Positions 46,411 through 56,887 of a DNA stretch of 64,000 nucleotides are shown piece by piece. How positions within the stretch are numbered: the first letter of the stretch is position 1; the number at the start of each line of letters is the position of its first letter. The stretch comes from a virus. The stretch lies in IMG/VR virus record IMGVR_UViG_3300013383_000248. One strand, written 5' to 3'. Made by a program: the position numbers and the translations under genes. The notes under the pieces are model-generated. The model saw only the letters and a list, made by a program, of their open reading frames with translations. It made no database searches and was not told the DNA's origin.

Positions 46411-46455
46411 TCTATATATATTATATAAAATTTTTTTTAATTTTTCAAATTTTAT
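46411..46455 (-). promoter_or_regulatory. Conserved phage promoter motif upstream of tRNA-Thr
   Basis: tctatatatattatataaaattttttttaatttttcaaatttt. Confidence 0.4.
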
Positions 46456-47329
46456 AATAAAATCTATCAAAATCCACTAAAAATTGTTGCTGATATTCTG
46501 GTTTAATAAAGTAATTAGCATAATTACAAAGATTTTCTAAATAAGATAAAGTTCGGCCTTCTAATTTAAAATATTTAAATCCATTAGGCTCATAAAAATC
46601 TTGTATTAAATTTACAGGTATATTATTTATGCTATTTTTTTGTTCTAAACTAAGAGTATTTTTTTTAATAGAACAATTCTACATAGTATAAGGCATCCCA
46701 TAAGTTAAGCCAAATAAACTATTTAATTTATAATGTTCCTTACGATAGGGGCAGGCCGGCGGGCATATAGCATTACATAGAAATTCTGTTTTTTCTTTCT
46801 CTTCTGGAGAAAAATCTAGTAATTTTTTGTTATGATTTAAATTATAATCTAAACAAACCATTTTATAATTAGGATTATTAATTTCTTCTTTTAACTTATC
46901 AAAATTAGTAATACATTTAGTTGTAGAAGAAATAAATTGATAACTAGGATATTTACTATGAATATATTCTCTTAAATTATCATCAGCTAATACAATTTCT
47001 ACATTATAATCCTATCCAATAGTAAGAATCAAATTACAAAATCTATCATAATAATCTTGTTCTTTAAGCTAATTATTTGTAAAAATTAAACGACTAGTAA
47101 TACCTTGATTAGTATAATAAGAAAAAATATTATCTATTTCTTCCAATGTATTTTGCTTATATTCACCAAATATTCTGCCGCCATCCCAAATACAAAATTG
47201 AAAATTACCAAAAGCTGCACTTATAGTTGTATTCTCTATCTATTCTTTTGGGTTATCTTTTAAATAACGAATGAATGCTTTATTAAATTCAAAATGTTCA
47301 TACAATCCTGGAATTATATAATTAATCAT
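46445..47329 (-). CDS. SPASM-domain protein A (radical-SAM-related, no canonical Cx3Cx2C seen); several TAG
   Basis: TAG read-through joins ORF 46679..46861 (...CNAICPPACPYRKEHY) to the flanks. The start overlaps the upstream stop as ATGATTAA. Confidence 0.35.
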
Positions 47330-48161
47330 AGTTTCTCCATTTTTTTAAAACATCATATTTAAATTCATCTTTAATAAAATAATTTATTAAAAATATTAAA
47401 TAATTTTCAGCACTATGTTGTGGATTAGATTTTATTATAAAATGATTTATTCCTAATTTAGAATAATTTTCTAATTCTTTTATAGTAACAGTATTTTCAT
47501 TGTACTTCTCGCAATTACAAAAATTAGATTTATTAGAATAATTAATCTAATACTCAAATTCTTTTAACCAACAAGCATTATAGTTTTTACAATTAATACA
47601 ATTAGGATTAATTGTAACTTCTAATAATTTTTTATTATTTAATCCCTTAATTTTATCTAAAGGATAATTATCAGGTAATTGAATTAAAGAAAAAATATCT
47701 TTATTTTCTCCTAATATTTGATTTATATTATTTATTTCTGGAGAAAGAGTGAAAAAAATGTTTTTTGATAGTATATAATTATATGTAAAATTAGATTTAA
47801 TATAATTCAAAAAATCTAAATTACTAACTTCTATATAATTACCCTATCTATCAAATTCTTTTAATAAACTATTTAAATAACAATTATATATATCATTATT
47901 TTCAATATATAAATTAGACATAGAAAATCTTATGGGTTTTTTATCTAAATTTTCCCTAGTTTTAAAATTAGGAGTTAAAGTAGTAGGACCATTATTATTA
48001 TTAAAATCTCCATTAAAATAAAAATAAGAATAACTGCCCTAATAGCAATTAAAACATATATTAGAATTAATAAAATATTCAGGATGCTAATCTAATAAAT
48101 TTATAAAATAATTAATTACTTTATAATTATAAAAAAAATCACATAAGGTAAAATAATACAT
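47322..48161 (-). CDS. SPASM-domain protein B; several TAG
   Basis: TAG read-through joins ORF 47547..47810 (...NPNCINCKNYNACW...) to the flanks. The N-terminus is MYYFTLCDFFYNYK. Confidence 0.35.
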
Positions 48162-49250
48162 TTAAAGCCTCATCTAAAATAAATCTTTTTTAAATAATAA
48201 AGGAATCTATAAATGTTGAGGACATTTTTTTTCACATTTATGGCAAGAAATGCATTTAAAAAAATCATCTGAATTACGACTATAATTCATATATTCTTTA
48301 AAGTTTTTATAATTTGTTCCATGTTTTAATATATTATTATACTATTCAAAATACCATGGGATATTTATTCCTTGCGGACAAGGTTGACAATAATTACACT
48401 TGGAACAATTTATATAATGTTTTTCTTTATATTCCTATAATATTTTTTCTATATTTATTATATCCTATTTTGTTAAATTTGTCAAGCTATTTATTGTTAT
48501 TATATTTTCAGCCAATACTTCTAAATTGTCTGCACCACTTAATATACAATTTATCTAATTTAAATTATTTAAGAATTTATATGGCAATTCTTTATAATTA
48601 GTACATATATCTATATTTATATCTTTTATTAGTGTGCCGCCTTTGTTTGCACCCATCACCCAAATTGGCACATTATATTTTTGGCATAATTCATAATTTT
48701 GCTGTCCAGAAGAAAGATAATAATCATAATAATTTAACTATAATTGTACTAAATCCCAGCATTTTAATTTTAATAGAGTTTCTAATACTATTGGAGTGCC
48801 ATGAAATGAAAAACCTAAATATTTAATTATACCTTCTTTTTTCTTTTTTAATAAATAAGAAAGTAAATTAAATTTCTATAATAAATTAATACAAGAATCA
48901 TCAATAGCTTGTATTAAATAAAAATCAAAATAGGTCGTTTTCATATTATCTAATTGCTATTGGAATAATTTTTCCATTTCTTTATAAGAATGTAAATTTT
49001 CAAACACTCCTTTTAATGGTAATTTATCACATAAATAATATGAATTGCGAGGATATTTTTGTAAACAATTGCTTAAAATACTTTCACATTTATTGTTTAA
49101 ATAAAAATAACAACCTTCAAAATAATTAATGCCACTTTCAATAGCAAAATCTACTATTTTCTATGATAATAATTGATTATTTGGGTCTTGACGCATCATA
49201 CCAAGACCCAAATAACTTATTTTATTATTATTAAAATCTTTATACTTCAT
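48162..49250 (-). CDS. Aldo/keto reductase fused to a C-terminal 4Fe-4S ferredoxin-like domain; about 9 TAG
   Basis: MKYKDFNNNKISYLGLGMMR...FDFYLIQAIDD is AKR-like. The C-terminus CSKCNYCQPCPQGINIP...CISCHKCEKKCPQ is ferredoxin-like. Confidence 0.45.
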
Positions 49251-49881
49251 CTTTTTTTTCTTTATCTTCGCTAGTTTCTAATACCTAGGTTAATAAAGCT
49301 TTATAGATATCATTATAATTCATATTAGAATTATCAACAATTTTATCAATAATTTCAGGTTCTCCAATTAATCTTAATACTCGACCTTTATGATCTATCT
49401 CTACTTTTTGTTTATATTCTTTATTAGGTGCTGTAATTACATTTCCGACAATTATTATAATTGCAGTCTTACCATATTCAGGTAATTCATATTCACAATT
49501 ATATGGGACATAGCGTTTTTTAATTTCAATTCCATTTACATTAGAAAAAATTTCATTTTCAAGATTTTTTAAATTATACTCTTCTAATTCATTAAAATTA
49601 TCTTTTACTAAAGGAAGATTTAAGCTAGTATTACGAGTAATTTTTATTTTACATTCTTTTAATAATAAAGATAAAGCAGAACTCATCGAAGAATTAATTT
49701 CTAATAAATTAATAATATTTAATACTAAAAAAGCATTATAAAAATTATTTAAATTAAATTTATTATCACAAATATCAAAAAATAGTTTTGATACACTTGG
49801 ATAGTTATTATCACATAAATTATTTAATACTAAATCTTCATATAATTCTAAGAGAGCACCGCTTGTATTTTTTTCATCCAT
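49238..49881 (-). CDS. Hypothetical protein (about 213 aa); 1 TAG
   Basis: ORF 49285..49881 extends through one TAG to a TAA. Confidence 0.35.
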
Positions 49882-55289: not shown

Positions 55290-55553
55290 TATGCTTACCT
55301 CGGCACTGAAAAAATTTAAAGACCAATTAATTAAAGGTTCATTAATTTGAGTTTTTAAGTAAGATTCTAATTGATTTTTGGCTAATGCTAATTCAATATA
55401 ATAATCCTAATATTTTTCATAGTAATTTTGAGAAATGCTTTTATCCATCCCATGGGCAGCCATAAAAGCCAATAAATCCTAATGACATTGTACTTCATAA
55501 GTAAGCATTTCTATATACTCACTCTGTTCTTTTGGAATTTTTATTTTCATTAT
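55290..55553 (-). CDS. Small protein (88 aa) immediately upstream of radical SAM paralog 2; 2 TAG
   Basis: MKIKIPKEQSEYIEMLTYEVQCH(Q)DLLAFMAAHGMDKS... has an ATGATTAA overlap with the radical SAM start. Confidence 0.3.
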
Positions 55554-55555
55554 TC

Positions 55556-56110
55556 TAATTCACTTTCTAATAAAGGCAAATTAAAAACGCCTGATTTTAT
55601 TTTATTATCTTTTTTATTAAGCAATTCTTCAAGTAATTTAACAATTCTATCACAAGTGTCTTTATAGGTAATACTAATTCCCTAATTTAAATGAAATTGT
55701 AAGCAATAATTTAAAAATACAATTTTTATTTCATCACTTTTAATTATATTAATATTATCTAATATCTAATTTAGCGATACATTTTTAAAACATAAATCCA
55801 TTTCAGGAAAATATATTCGTGTAATAATAATGTATTGTATCATAAGAGCATAATAATGAATATCAATTAAAGACTATAAACAAGTAAATTGTTCTAACCA
55901 TTCCTATAGCTATCCAATATAAGTATTAACCTATGAAATTTCATTAAATTTAAATAATTTAATTGTATTATTAGTAAACTAGGATAAAAATACTAATTTG
56001 CATTCTGGCATTGTTTTATTTAATTCTTTATCTATATTTTTACATAACTATGTAATATCTTCATTATTTTTTATATTTATTAACAATTGTGTAAAATAAA
56101 TATTATATTT
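55556..56110 (-). CDS. Hypothetical protein (about 185 aa); many TAG
   Basis: MDEFKYNIYFTQLLINIKNNEDIT(Q)LCKN... Confidence 0.3.
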
Positions 56111-56134
56111 AAATTCATCCATAAATTATTCCTT

Positions 56135-56887
56135 TTAAGTATTGCTAGAACTTGACCAAGCTGTACCGCTACCAACGCTTGAACTAGCACTTCCTGCAGT
56201 ACAGGCATCTTTACAACTACCTGTTCCACAACTGCGGCATCCAGGATTTGATGCCGCAGTGCCATCGCCTGAACAACCATTGGAACATGAACTATAACAA
56301 TTGCCTACACATCCATTATATCCACAAGTAATAGTACAAGTGCCTTTACAGCCGCCATCGCAATCGCCATAGCAATTGCCCGAACAGCCACTACCACATC
56401 CACGGCAAGCATTAGTACATCCATCGCCGCACACGCCAGTACAGTCATTCGCACAATTCGCACGGCATGTGTTAGAGCATCCAGAAGTACAAGACCCAGT
56501 ACAACTTAAACATAAACCAGTACAACTTACTGCACAGTCAGTATGATTTTTATTGGTCTTATCAGTAGTCATCCATGTACTAACTTGATAATCCATATTA
56601 TATATTTCATCATTTAATATGACATTATCATTAGCTAACACTTTAGCTTTAGGGATATTATTATAGTTAATTGCATTTAAAGGAGTGGCATTTTTATTAT
56701 AATATTCCGCTTTTACAACCGCGTTTATAGTAGGATCGCTAGAAAAGTCATATACTGTTCCGCCATAAGCCTCGACTGAGCCAGTATATTTACGACGTAG
56801 ACATTCAGCTTTTACTTTTGCTTTTAATTTAACTAATCGGTCTATATCAACTATAGATCCTGAACCATATTGTTTATCTTCTGCCAT
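56135..56887 (-). CDS. Cys-rich repeat protein 2 (N-terminal about 140 aa domain plus C-terminal CTGxCxxC tandem repeats)
   Basis: ...CAVSCTGLCLSCTGSCTSGCSNTCRANCANDCTGVCGDGCTNACRGCGSGCSGNCYGDCDGGCKGTC... is the repeat region. No TAG codons occur. Confidence 0.5.
   Translation of the reverse strand: MAEDKQYGSGSIVDIDRLVKLKAKVKAECLRRKYTGSVEAYGGTVYDFSSDPTINAVVKAEYYNKNATPLNAINYNNIPKAKVLANDNVILNDEIYNMDYQVSTWMTTDKTNKNHTDCAVSCTGLCLSCTGSCTSGCSNTCRANCANDCTGVCGDGCTNACRGCGSGCSGNCYGDCDGGCKGTCTITCGYNGCVGNCYSSCSNGCSGDGTAASNPGCRSCGTGSCKDACTAGSASSSVGSGTAWSSSSNT

Follow-up and report, generated by a model that had tools for sequence, protein, structure and literature searches.

Two radical SAM systems beside the tail-fibre genes of a TAG-recoded phage, each with a putative cysteine-rich target

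Results

A recoded block beside the tail-fibre genes

The window analysed here is a 64,000-nucleotide stretch of a virus (IMG/VR record IMGVR_UViG_3300013383_000248). Its source is an uncultured, gut-type phage in which TAG is recoded to Gln. With the standard code, the block at positions 46445-57367 fragments into short ORFs; if TAG is treated as a sense codon, 13 closely packed genes appear, all on the minus strand. The assignment of TAG to Gln is supported because the window encodes a CUA-anticodon tRNA and because 49 standard-code homologues mostly have Q at the positions aligned to TAG (e.g. 44/49 and 42/49).

The closest relative of the window, a 157-kb IMG/VR contig (L001), has a conserved module A without the 6.9-kb cassette that follows it here. 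The 10-kb block comprises two independent systems, module A and module B (Table 1). A first-pass annotation had described one multi-enzyme system upstream of the tail-fibre genes. Transcription runs along the minus strand here, which places the block downstream of these genes. The gene that precedes module A in the window is of the tail-fibre type, and the next fibre gene carries an Mtd_N domain.

The translational coupling noted earlier fits the junctions at which stop and start codons overlap (ATGATTAA in two cases and ATGGATAA in one) and further overlaps of -1, -11, -32, and -58 nt. The genes of the block, noted earlier as TAG-heavy, carry 1-12 in-frame TAG each; only the Cys-repeat gene is free of them. 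The replication genes of the window are TAG-free, and the tail-fibre genes and both modules contain TAG, a distribution that may reflect late expression.

Table 1 Coordinates of the genes and features described in the text
Feature	Position	Strand	Description
Tail-fibre-type gene	57547-59670 (start codon not fixed)	-	ALK/LTK glycine-rich domain, PF12810, 159.7 bits
Terminator-like hairpin	57415-57451		3' of the tail-fibre-type gene
Module A	53344-57367	-	
g144	56933-57367	-	first gene; small paralogue of tail-fibre C-terminus (…WVDTS…W…VAWS)
Cys250	56135-56887	-	presumed target, 250 aa; ~100-aa helical N-domain and C-terminal CxxxC repeats
g190	55550-56122	-	190 aa; lineage-specific, homologue in L001 only (54% identity)
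g89	55281-55550	-	89 aa; divergent TIGR04116 homologue
rSAM428	54002-55288	-	radical SAM/SPASM maturase, CXXX-repeat target family (TIGR04115); CNLCCSYC
NT221	53344-54009	-	last gene; weak Pol-beta-type nucleotidyltransferase, PHROG 388
Terminator-like hairpin	53316-53348	-	directly 3' of NT221 stop codon; left edge of inserted cassette
Module B	46451-53332	-	inserted cassette
Promoter-like motif TTATATACTATATATAG	53277-53293	-	in front of cassette
CT209	52628-53257	-	presumed target, Cys/Thr/Asn-rich; three-helix N-domain and variable tail rich in Thr/Ser/Asn/Phe/Cys
rSAM443	51283-52614	-	radical SAM, truncated (twitch-like) auxiliary-cluster domain; CNLKCRYC; Radical_SAM/Fer4_12
rSAM496	49824-51314	-	radical SAM, full seven-Cys SPASM domain; CNKSCEYC
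g213	49240-49881	-	cassette-specific, only in near-identical cassettes L013-L016; no family matches
AKR-ferredoxin	48162-49250	-	accessory; aldo/keto reductase fused to 2x[4Fe-4S] ferredoxin; PF00248 and Fer4_9/17/8/10
g279	47322-48161	-	probably distant g294 paralogue; Cx2Cx5C
g294	46445-47329	-	last gene; conserved Cx3Cx3CPYR…H
Promoter-like motif TTATATACTATATATAG	46412-46428		ahead of tRNA-Thr
CUA-anticodon tRNA	42709-42783		
Second CXXX-repeat module	23847-26309	-	
g80	26067-26309	-	80 aa
rSAM432	24761-26059	-	fourth radical SAM gene of the window
Cys303	23847-24758	-	N-terminal Cys repeats; different C-terminal domain

Module A

Module A runs in the order g144, Cys250, g190, g89, rSAM428, and NT221, and is flanked by two terminator-like hairpins. 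The repeat region of Cys250 holds 27 Cys at period 4 in 116 residues and is matched by phrog_6085. The protein contains 20 C-x3-C pairs, whereas 5000 shuffled versions average 5.9 and never exceed 14, which bears out its earlier description as a Cys-repeat protein. The family of its N-domain comprises 513 representatives at 50% identity.

The enzyme rSAM428 scores 400.8 bits against TIGR04115 ('radical SAM peptide maturase, CXXX-repeat target family'), above the curated cutoff of 350 bits. Its next-best matches are all Cys-thioether maturases, namely PapB (175 bits), CcpM, SCIFF, and QhpD. In alignment with residues 90-443 of CteB (PDB 5wgg), the CxxxCxxC motif, the GGEP motif, and the SPASM cysteines are kept.

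The gene g89 overlaps the start of rSAM428 by 8 nt. Direct comparison of its product with NCBIfam gives no match; membership in TIGR04116 ('CXXX repeat peptide modification system protein') comes from a transitive profile search, in which jackhmmer collects a family from 74 loci, nearly always abutting a radical SAM gene, and converges on a bona fide TIGR04116 protein of another contig (L003; E 1.5e-15). PqqD/RRE-like domains had been suspected in g89 and in the 80-aa g80; we found no sequence similarity to them.

Most phage modules hold an unrelated protein of ~170-200 aa in the slot of g190, which itself has no match in family-profile searches (NCBIfam, PHROGs, and PADLOC). NT221, likewise with a homologue in L001 only, was first read as a Pol-beta-type nucleotidyltransferase; it matches phrog_388 'nucleotidyltransferase' (E 1.9e-9) and shows a GS-x9-DxD motif, but its Pfam matches are below threshold (E 0.004), so that the assignment is a weak one. 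The product of g144 is 46-48% identical to the C-terminus of L001 tail-fibre-like proteins, and its homologues adjoin the module in 22 loci.

Relatives of rSAM428 occur on at least 221 viral (IMG/VR) contigs. A same-strand CxxxC-rich ORF lies within ~2 kb of the radical SAM gene in 76 of the 80 viral loci examined, and the Cys250 N-domain is found in the targets of 58-64 viral loci. The flanking proteins (n = 83, from ~30 non-redundant standard-code loci) most often match the PHROGs for tail fibre, tail collar fibre, tail protein, virion structural protein, and baseplate wedge. In one locus (L035), the CxxxC region and two PF12810 tail-fibre-type domains belong to one polypeptide; the same holds for L070 by PHROG profile.

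The bacterial CXXX-repeat system, which was defined bioinformatically and for which our search found no experimental paper, comprises a target (TIGR04114/04117), a radical SAM enzyme (TIGR04115), a small protein (TIGR04116), and a second maturase (TIGR04119). The phage loci resemble it in having a radical SAM/SPASM enzyme at or above the TIGR04115 cutoff, target cysteines at period 4, and a TIGR04116-family gene of ~90 aa abutting the enzyme gene. However, where the bacterial targets have a TAT signal, those of the phages have a conserved ~100-aa helical domain or larger tail-fibre-type domains; the phage loci lack the SPASM-only maturase TIGR04119 and TatA/TatC, often have the inserted variable protein, and sit in tail-fibre/baseplate blocks. 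A TIGR04119-like maturase or a TAT motif is present in none of 82 viral loci, whereas 80 bacterial loci contain the maturase in 56 cases, the TAT motif in 39, and the N-domain in 3. Judged by sequence, module A is thus a phage-adapted version of Haft's bacterial CXXX-repeat peptide modification system.

Elsewhere in the window, a second CXXX-repeat module has the order g80, rSAM432, and Cys303, which is repeated in L069 and L075. rSAM432 scores 349.7 bits against the TIGR04115 cutoff of 350. According to ORF translations and two weak NCBIfam matches, this module apparently lies outside any tail block, so a tail role is not obligatory.

Module B

Relative to L001, module B is a 6.9-kb insertion between NT221 and tRNA-Thr: by blastn, window positions 57583-53333 correspond to L001 positions 7739-11956, and 46450-46341 to 11940-12050. 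Its GC content is 0.21-0.23, compared with about 0.26-0.37 in the remaining window. Independent assemblies contain the same seven-gene cassette (91-95% identity), in one case with different flanks. The window has 12 copies of TTATATACTATATATAG, the motif at the cassette edge, against an expectation of 0.77, and 11 copies are on the minus strand. Module B is a self-contained, independently acquired cassette with its own terminator and a promoter-like motif at the edge.

The three radical SAM genes of the block are present with the motifs first reported, as is the Cys/Thr/Asn-rich protein, CT209. Only 29 of 5.8 billion proteins belong to the CT209 family, whose tails are hypervariable; the AF2 model of the N-domain has a pLDDT of 60-75. 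The best NCBIfam match of rSAM443 is N_Twi_rSAM (1.1e-10), and it passes no equivalog cutoff. The SPASM region of rSAM496 matches the SCIFF, QhpD, and PapB maturases, TIGR04085, and residues 304-447 of CteB. Both enzymes are related to the rSAM428 family in hhalign (E 1e-82 for rSAM443 and 1e-63 for rSAM496).

The predicted fusion of an aldo/keto reductase to a ferredoxin is confirmed (Aldo_ket_red, 78 bits; Fer4_9, 35 bits). The label of SPASM-only proteins given to g294 and g279 is not supported: neither matches Pfam, NCBIfam, PHROGs, PADLOC, or PDB sequences, and g279, the only one of the two with a Cx2Cx5C motif, has no significant profile match to a SPASM region (E 0.077). The two proteins are colinear over ~210 columns in hhalign (E 0.03-0.045).

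The core of module B (target, twitch-like radical SAM, and radical SAM/SPASM) recurs on 23 viral contigs. The rSAM496 homologue directly follows the rSAM443 homologue in 23/23 loci, with a CT209-family target upstream of the pair in 20/23. Downstream of the pair, the g294 family (28% identity) is found in 8/23 loci, including tandem g294-family genes in L191, L192, L193, and L201, and AKR-Fer4 homologues in 3/23 (L180, L192, and L193). In L012, the genes ahead of module B encode baseplate wedge, tail collar fibre, and minor tail proteins.

Discussion

None of the radical SAM enzymes resembles a housekeeping type, and Cys-rich partners are co-conserved with them in both modules; the first-pass idea of a modification system therefore stands, as two systems of which one has an enzyme of a curated maturase family. 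Conserved gene order and family assignment in part support radical SAM/SPASM enzymes dedicated to modifying adjacent Cys-rich proteins near tail-fibre genes. The tool results show which genes the loci contain, the families these belong to, their synteny and co-conservation, the limits of the cassette, and how phage and bacterial loci differ; we infer the enzyme-substrate relationship, cross-link chemistry, virion location, and accessory gene roles set out below. We found no paper on this phage system.

Our preferred reading, which we consider reasonably likely, is that the two systems mature their adjacent targets, module A yielding a stapled tail-fibre or baseplate element and module B modifying the CT209 tail. 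rSAM428, aided by the TIGR04116-like g89, would put many intramolecular cross-links into the period-4 repeat of Cys250. These would most likely be thioethers from Cys-S to carbon, like the products of CteB, PapB, and QhpD. The type of cross-link is not readable from Cys250 because the repeat has no fixed acceptor residue, such as the Asp of PapB substrates. The helical N-domain would be a handle through which either the enzyme recognises Cys250 or the protein docks onto the tail-fibre apparatus. Covalently stapled in this way, the product would resist proteases and be independent of redox conditions, in a phage replicating in an anaerobe. That the targets may be incorporated into the virion is suggested by where the genes lie and by one family of domain fusions.

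In module B, the twitch-type and then the SPASM-type enzyme would act in succession on the hypervariable CT209 tail. The AKR-ferredoxin may supply or relay electrons or perform a further redox step, and the two g294-family Cys-motif proteins may be accessory factors. Some B-type tails have no cysteine at all (P0028); thioether formation is therefore not the universal reaction, at least in system B, and comparison of the B tails gives no single motif common to all. In AF2 models of the A and B targets, which are of low confidence (pLDDT 40 and 46), both N-domains form three helices with the same spacing; a fold search found nothing. Since hhalign gives E 5e-4 to 8e-3 with probabilities of 5-13%, homology between the two N-domains is only suggestive.

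Both modules have parallels among known systems. The radical SAM core, seven-Cys SPASM domain, and multi-Cys substrate are shared with CteB (SCIFF), PapB (ranthipeptide freyrasin), and QhpD, but rSAM428 has nothing equivalent to the N-terminal RRE domain of CteB (residues 1-89), and the phage substrates are of 176 to ~890 aa (standard-code ORF calls) instead of ~50-aa peptides. Module B is like the His-Xaa-Ser system HxsB/HxsC in its tandem, always paired radical SAM genes downstream of a repeat-rich target; rSAM443 matches HxsB weakly (1.9e-7), and some B tails have H-G-S and W-G-N motifs. It differs in scores far under the cutoffs, a 100-aa N-domain on the targets, repeats that vary between subfamilies, a phage-borne location, and the AKR-ferredoxin and g294-family accessories.

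The conserved N-terminal and hypervariable C-terminal parts of the targets are typical of RiPPs, and the nearest enzymes are RiPP maturases. The Cys-rich proteins might thus be long-leader precursors, from which the ~100-aa leader is cleaved and the tail released as a bacteriocin or signalling peptide, the modules being morons that benefit the host or lysogen and not virion parts. The mobile, accessory character of module B and the TAT export of the targets of bacterial relatives fit this scheme. We nevertheless regard it as unlikely: we recognised no leader peptidase, ABC exporter, signal peptide, or TAT motif in either module or in the viral loci examined; the targets are large, with fusions to tail-fibre-type domains; the N-domain family can be C-terminal to the repeats, unlike a leader; and the loci sit inside tail/baseplate blocks. 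It is quite improbable that the CxxxC repeats bind metal or iron-sulfur clusters, as in metallothionein or polyferredoxin, with the radical SAM enzymes and the AKR-ferredoxin forming a redox or cofactor-assembly unit and not a cross-linker. The extreme cysteine density, the ferredoxin-domain protein of the cassette, and the TAT export of bacterial homologues, typical of cofactor-containing proteins, speak for such a role, but single cysteines at period 4 do not have the CxxC/CxxCxxC spacing of typical Fe-S ligation, B-type targets can be Cys-free, and curation places the enzyme family among peptide maturases, its nearest characterised relatives making thioethers.

Variable regions of diversity-generating retroelements are rich in Asn, Ser, Thr, Gly, Tyr, Asp, and Cys, and the tails resemble them. 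If the tails were receptor-binding regions diversified in this or a similar way, the radical SAM genes would be functionally unlinked neighbours, yet their tight, often overlapping, and repeatedly conserved order with the targets is unexpected for unrelated genes. A nearby fibre gene does carry Mtd_N, and the CT209 N-domain weakly matches retron-type RT profiles in PADLOC; a search of the window for a template-repeat copy of three tail-coding regions found none, no reverse transcriptase is seen among the translated genes, and we hold this explanation to be very improbable. A housekeeping or auxiliary metabolic identity of the radical SAM genes (anaerobic RNR activase, QueE, or viperin-like) is essentially refuted by the NCBIfam profile results: the viperin-type matches of the rSAM443 N-terminus (NCBIfam, 3.5e-6; PADLOC pVip, 4.8e-8) span only the generic radical SAM core and are far under the cutoffs, rSAM428 and rSAM432 are at the peptide-maturase equivalog cutoff, and NrdG and QueE are absent from the families listed for all four enzymes.

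The preferred reading remains maturation of the adjacent targets. Because two radical SAM systems lie beside tail-fibre genes, each with a protein of conserved head and hypervariable, Cys-rich tail, it is probable that phages of anaerobes use enzymes to cross-link proteins associated with the tail.

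Genetic code and gene layout

Under the bacterial code, the interval contains short ORFs only. When TAG is read as sense, ORF coverage of the window rises from 45 kb to 74 kb, and the interval becomes an unbroken minus-strand gene array with stop/start overlap at several junctions. The window encodes a suppressor tRNA with a CUA anticodon, and the TAG columns of both CXXX-type radical SAM genes are occupied mostly by Gln in 49 standard-code homologues (44/49 and 42/49). Therefore, TAG is translated as Gln in this work. In-frame TAG codons, at most 12 per gene, occur in the tail-fibre genes and in all genes of modules A and B except the Cys-repeat gene; they are absent from replication-type genes (topoisomerase subunits and ligase). 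In the recoding literature, recoded codons have been proposed as a mark of late genes, and the distribution of TAG is compatible with this proposal.

The window contains exactly four radical SAM genes. Module A is transcribed in the order g144, Cys250 (the presumed target), g190, g89, rSAM428 (a radical SAM enzyme), and NT221. A hairpin and then the promoter-like motif TTATATACTATATATAG separate NT221 from CT209, the presumed target of module B, which is followed by the radical SAM genes rSAM443 and rSAM496, g213, an AKR-ferredoxin gene, g279, and g294. A second copy of the promoter-like motif and then a tRNA-Thr lie 3' of g294. The fourth radical SAM gene, rSAM432, belongs to a second CXXX-repeat module together with g80 and the target Cys303.

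Coordinates of features in the window and in related contigs
Feature	Contig	Coordinates	Strand	Remark
Tail-fibre-type gene	window			upstream of g144; ALK/LTK glycine-rich domain, PF12810, 159.7 bits
Terminator-like hairpin	window	57415-57451		3' of tail-fibre-type gene, before g144
Module A	window	53344-57367	(-)	
Hairpin	window	53316-53348		between NT221 and CT209
Module B cassette	window	46451-53332	(-)	
Motif TTATATAMTATATATAG	window	e.g. 30696-30712, 33423-33439, 46412-46428, 53277-53293	(-)	
ROOL RNA	window	43647-44236	(-)	
Suppressor tRNA	window	42709-42783	(-)	CUA anticodon
Second CXXX-repeat module	window	23847-26309	(-)	
rSAM432	window	24761-26059		
Orphan g89/TIGR04116-like gene	window	17244-17534	(-)	
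Replication-type genes	window	e.g. 10538-12919, 14283-15812		in-frame TAG absent
Paralogous ORFs	window	41731-42978, 35204-35944, 13430-14140, 6160-6438	(-)	
Paralogous ORF	L001	12163-12810		
Junction	L001	11940-11956		position of the cassette in the window
B-type radical SAM pair and two following ORFs	L004	9439-11191		
B-type radical SAM homologues with TIGR04115-type maturase	L063	2495-9362		

Two systems instead of one

Of the relatives found, the IMG/VR contig L001 (157.5 kb) is the closest. It carries g144, Cys250, g190, g89, rSAM428, and NT221 in the same order as the window (54-91% protein identity), and beyond NT221 it continues directly with the sequence that follows g294 in the window. 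The alignment of the window with L001 breaks at 53333 and 46450. Therefore, module B is a 6.9-kb insertion. Its GC content is 0.21-0.23, compared with about 0.26-0.37 in the remainder of the window. The cassette starts with a terminator-like hairpin and the motif TTATATAMTATATATAG. The window contains 12 copies of this motif (0.77 expected), of which the coding strand carries 11, at intergenic sites. The motif is a candidate phage-specific promoter present on either side of the cassette.

The same seven-gene cassette is found at 91-95% identity in independent Logan assemblies, and in one of them (L014) both flanks are different. The seven Logan contigs with the cassette (L013-L019) all begin upstream of CT209, 89-95 nt before its start codon, which suggests breakage of assembly graphs at a polymorphic junction of the insertion. 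The first-pass annotation, which had read the block as a single multi-enzyme modification system, was right in part: the feature is real and non-random, but it consists of a conserved module and an inserted cassette that is missing in L001.

The 10.4 kb has no match among GenBank phages in a near-identity DNA search, nor does a conserved gene beside it have one in a search for distant DNA similarity. The topoisomerase-like protein gives only matches below 40% by tblastn. These results indicate that the phage has no cultured relative. Our literature search finds no paper on either system in phages, and no experimental work on the CXXX-repeat system.

Module A encodes a CXXX-repeat maturase and its presumed target

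Radical SAM signals in Pfam are weak. In NCBIfam, the best model for rSAM428 is TIGR04115 ('radical SAM peptide maturase, CXXX-repeat target family'; 400.8 bits against a cutoff of 350), followed by the PapB, CcpM, SCIFF, and QhpD maturases. This result is decisive for the family assignment of rSAM428. The paralogue rSAM432 scores 349.7 bits on the same model, just at the cutoff. The core of rSAM428 begins at residue ~27 and aligns with residues 90-443 of CteB, with the cluster motifs and the SPASM cysteines kept.

The presumed target, Cys250, is periodic: 19 of the 22 consecutive Cys intervals have a spacing of 4, and the protein contains 20 C-x3-C pairs, compared with a maximum of 14 in 5000 shuffles. 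Cys250 itself has no match to the TIGR04114/04117 HMMs at E<=0.01; its L002 orthologue reaches the TIGR04114 cutoff of 20 with 21.3 bits. Outside the Cys region is a conserved domain of ~100 aa, with the consensus I-x-A-x-D-F-x2-L-K-x-R-V-K-A-E-M-x-R-R … Y-D-Y … P … E-H-x2-K-I-x2-P-L-N-A-I. The targets of 58-64 loci carry this N-domain, mostly at the N-terminus and at times at the C-terminus. An exhaustive HMMER scan recovers 513 cluster representatives (260 at E<=1e-10), whereas a word-indexed protein search recovers merely 11-14 homologues. The 10 clusters checked are all unnamed. One homologue carries the precomputed Pfam accession PF27846, so that some part may already be curated. The AF2 model of Cys250 (pLDDT 40) is unusable.

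Neither g89 nor g80 has a direct NCBIfam match, TIGR04116 included. In an iterated profile search, g89 and 74 phage-locus homologues join an L003 protein classed by NCBIfam as TIGR04116 (E 1.5e-15), and g80 stays unjoined. Small proteins of this kind had been suspected to be RRE/PqqD-like; however, the g89-family profile matches no PqqD/RRE chain among PDB sequences. An orphan g89/TIGR04116-like protein of 95 aa (E 1.5e-10), encoded by a TAG-free gene, is found elsewhere in the window, remote from the radical SAM genes and near an amidase/endolysin-like gene.

The second CXXX-repeat module apparently lies outside the tail block, as judged from ORF translations and two weak NCBIfam matches, with tape-measure-like fragment/PhoH-like genes and a 460-aa protein resembling flotillin as its apparent neighbours. 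The target of this module, Cys303, has N-terminal Cys repeats and a different C-terminal domain, common to L069 and L075 only.

Comparison with bacterial CXXX-repeat and RiPP systems

A profile scan of IMG/VR yields at least 221 contigs with maturase relatives, 80 of which were examined. In 76 of the 80 viral loci, a same-strand CxxxC-rich ORF is located within ~2 kb of the maturase. A g89-family gene is present in 74 loci, almost always ending at the start of the radical SAM gene. The frequent gene orders are target, ~170-200 aa, ~90-115 aa, radical SAM; target, ~110 aa, radical SAM; and ~100 aa, radical SAM, target. Of the PHROGs assigned to 83 flanking proteins, the most frequent are tail fibre, tail collar fibre, tail protein, virion structural protein, and baseplate wedge. 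L035 encodes a fusion of the CxxxC region with two copies of PF12810, a domain that the fibre gene of the window also contains; L070 resembles L035 in a comparison of PHROG profiles alone.

A genome scan yields at least 528 maturase matches, chiefly in Bacteroidales and Clostridia, and prophage-like loci of Clostridia are among them (L100-L111). L003 has the full bacterial set, TatA and TatC included. The SPASM-only maturase TIGR04119 is found in 56/80 bacterial loci and 0/82 viral loci, and a twin-arginine (RR/TAT) motif on the target in 39/80 and 0/82, respectively; the TAT signal, often with TatA/TatC nearby, characterises the bacterial loci of this sample and is not a curated criterion of the system. 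Conversely, the phage N-domain is found in only 3/80 bacterial loci. The window has no TIGR04119 'CXXX repeat peptide maturase', and g279 and g294 are unmatched by that model. Module A shares the enzyme and the repeat with the CXXX-repeat system (TIGR04114-04119), but has neither the TIGR04119 protein nor the TAT export of the bacterial loci. Therefore, judged by sequence, module A is best described as a phage variant of the CXXX-repeat system and not as a plain member.

Both rSAM428, by residue-level alignment with CteB, and rSAM496 have the CxxxCxxC motif and the seven-Cys SPASM domain of the CteB/PapB systems. The N-terminal RRE domain of CteB is without counterpart in rSAM428, which aligns from CteB residue 90 only. 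In addition, RiPP systems act on a short precursor with a cleavable leader, whereas the phage targets are 176-890 aa, and no peptidase or transporter family is found in the module genes with Pfam, NCBIfam, or PHROGs.

Module B encodes a pair of radical SAM enzymes and a variable presumed target

rSAM496 contains a full SPASM domain (NCBIfam and CteB match). rSAM443 contains the first part of SPASM alone, as read from the sequence, and its best match is the twitch-domain family N_Twi_rSAM. Both enzymes show homology with the rSAM428 family along most of the protein (hhalign E 1e-63 for rSAM496 and 1e-82 for rSAM443), but the latter value is probably inflated, as the rSAM443 family alignment may include rSAM428-like sequences. 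No NCBIfam equivalog model claims either enzyme. Module B resembles paired-rSAM repeat-peptide systems in outline only, and has no curated family.

Homologues of rSAM496 are found in 23 viral loci, with an rSAM443 homologue immediately upstream in all 23 and a CT209-type N-domain protein upstream of the pair in 20. In L012, this triad comes after baseplate wedge, tail protein, tail collar fibre, and minor tail genes. The accessories are less constant. Genes of the g294 family lie 3' of the pair in 8/23 loci, in tandem in four of those, supporting the view that g279 and g294 are paralogues. Their hhalign alignment is colinear and weak (E 0.03), and not significant by BLASTP. These two proteins, which the first-pass annotation had called SPASM-only, have no match in Pfam, NCBIfam, PHROGs, PADLOC, or PDB sequences. 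AKR-ferredoxin homologues lie 3' of the pair in 3/23 loci. Pfam bears out the proposed fusion of an aldo/keto reductase with a 4Fe-4S domain. The position of the catalytic His is Gln (by eye), so that the protein may not be a classical reductase.

The CT209 family has 29 members among 5.8 billion proteins. Their tails are very variable, with x-S-N-G-x pentads, T-N-F-S-G-F-N-G repeats, and H-G-S/W-G-N-rich types; the tail in the window is Thr/Ser/Cys-rich, and one member lacks Cys entirely. N-x-S/T sequons, aromatic-x-S/N motifs, and NG periodicity are enriched in some tail subfamilies and universal in none. In the AF2 model of the homologue P0002, the N-domain comprises three helices at residues 7-23, 43-57, and 81-100 (pLDDT 60-75); this model is moderate in the N-domain alone, and a PDB fold search with it gives no match with E<0.79. 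The low-confidence model of Cys250 has helices at corresponding places. Profile-profile alignment of the N-domains of the two targets (hhalign, shallow and deeper) is colinear, not significant, and suggestive only, and BLASTP between the two targets is not significant. Searches with g294 and rSAM443 against PDB sequences, and profile searches with the g89 and N-domain families, give nothing meaningful. PADLOC assigns no defence system. Residues 14-97 of CT209 weakly match five PADLOC profiles of retron-type reverse transcriptases (E 8.5e-6 to 5e-3, profile positions ~125-247); these matches are probably compositional.

Two observations concern related contigs. In L004, the B-type radical SAM pair is followed by two glycosyltransferase-like ORFs (by eye), and several B tails are N-x-S/T-rich. 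The jumbo-phage contig L063 (IMGVR_UViG_3300042922_000542, 246 kb) carries both B-type radical SAM homologues, a TIGR04115-type maturase, and two large CxxxC proteins of 387 and 421 aa in the same locus, indicating that the two systems can merge.

Alternative explanations

The variable tails might be the target of a diversity-generating retroelement. However, none of the three tail-coding regions has a second copy in the 64-kb window by blastn with a word size of 7, which argues against such an element. Two further alternatives, a released RiPP and metal binding, were weighed as well and are considered unlikely. The enzymes, in turn, might be housekeeping types such as NrdG, QueE, or MoaA, a possibility that the first-pass annotation had named as one that would refute its proposal of a modification system. 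Matches to the MoaA and viperin cores do occur, but they are far sub-threshold, and no score comes near the housekeeping equivalog cutoffs. The proposal therefore withstands this check, and modification of the neighbouring targets is the reading considered below.

Other features of the phage

The tRNA cluster of the phage contains a full-length ROOL RNA (Rfam RF03087, 320 bits vs gathering score 99, model positions 1-574) between a tRNA-Tyr/Gln pair and the suppressor tRNA. Four ORFs of the window and one of L001 share a region of ~100 aa at 37-46% identity; with their GIY-YIG-like motif (by eye), they may be homing endonucleases. The L001 copy lies between tRNA-Thr and a 117-aa gene, ~200 nt downstream of the junction where the window has the 6.9-kb cassette.

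Proposed mechanism and implications

To the observed enzyme families, conserved adjacency, and architecture, we add a proposed mechanism. In system A, rSAM428 and the TIGR04116-like g89 would cross-link the period-4 cysteines of Cys250. The products would most likely be thioether bonds, since all characterised close relatives (CteB, PapB, and QhpD) form them. The fused and neighbouring tail-fibre domains suggest that the product belongs to the tail apparatus. A covalent staple independent of disulfides would suit both the cytoplasm of an anaerobe and the gut lumen. In system B, the two radical SAM enzymes would act in succession on the CT209 tail. Cys is not universal in the target family, and therefore at least one reaction is probably aimed at residues other than Cys. 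The AKR-ferredoxin may supply electrons or carry out a follow-up redox step.

We tentatively suggest, with more doubt than confidence, that in phages of strict anaerobes radical SAM/SPASM enzymes introduce arrays of covalent cross-links into structural proteins associated with the tail fibre ('RiPP-like virion proteins'), and that modules of target plus enzyme pass between phages as cassettes, tuning the stability of the fibre or the recognition of the host in a gut that is reducing and rich in proteases. Among these modules would be the newly recognised system of paired rSAM enzymes with its AKR-ferredoxin and g294-family accessories. If true, this would be the first tail component enzymatically cross-linked by radical chemistry, and would give the uncharacterised CXXX-repeat family a function, its first functional handle. 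With exactly defined ends, regulatory signals of its own, and several near-identical copies in assemblies independent of one another, the 6.9-kb cassette is a compact, clonable test object. The chemistry lends itself to direct testing, and the biological setting is an unexpected one.

Radical SAM/SPASM maturases have been studied nearly always as makers of small secreted peptides. Here, the enzyme class is tied to proteins of ~180-890 aa in phage tail-fibre/baseplate blocks of hundreds of viral contigs, in an architecture cleanly distinct from that of the bacterial loci. Cross-linked parts of the virion, if that is what the products are, would represent a new viral route to stabilise or diversify the host-recognition apparatus in an anoxic, protease-rich habitat where disulfides are unreliable.
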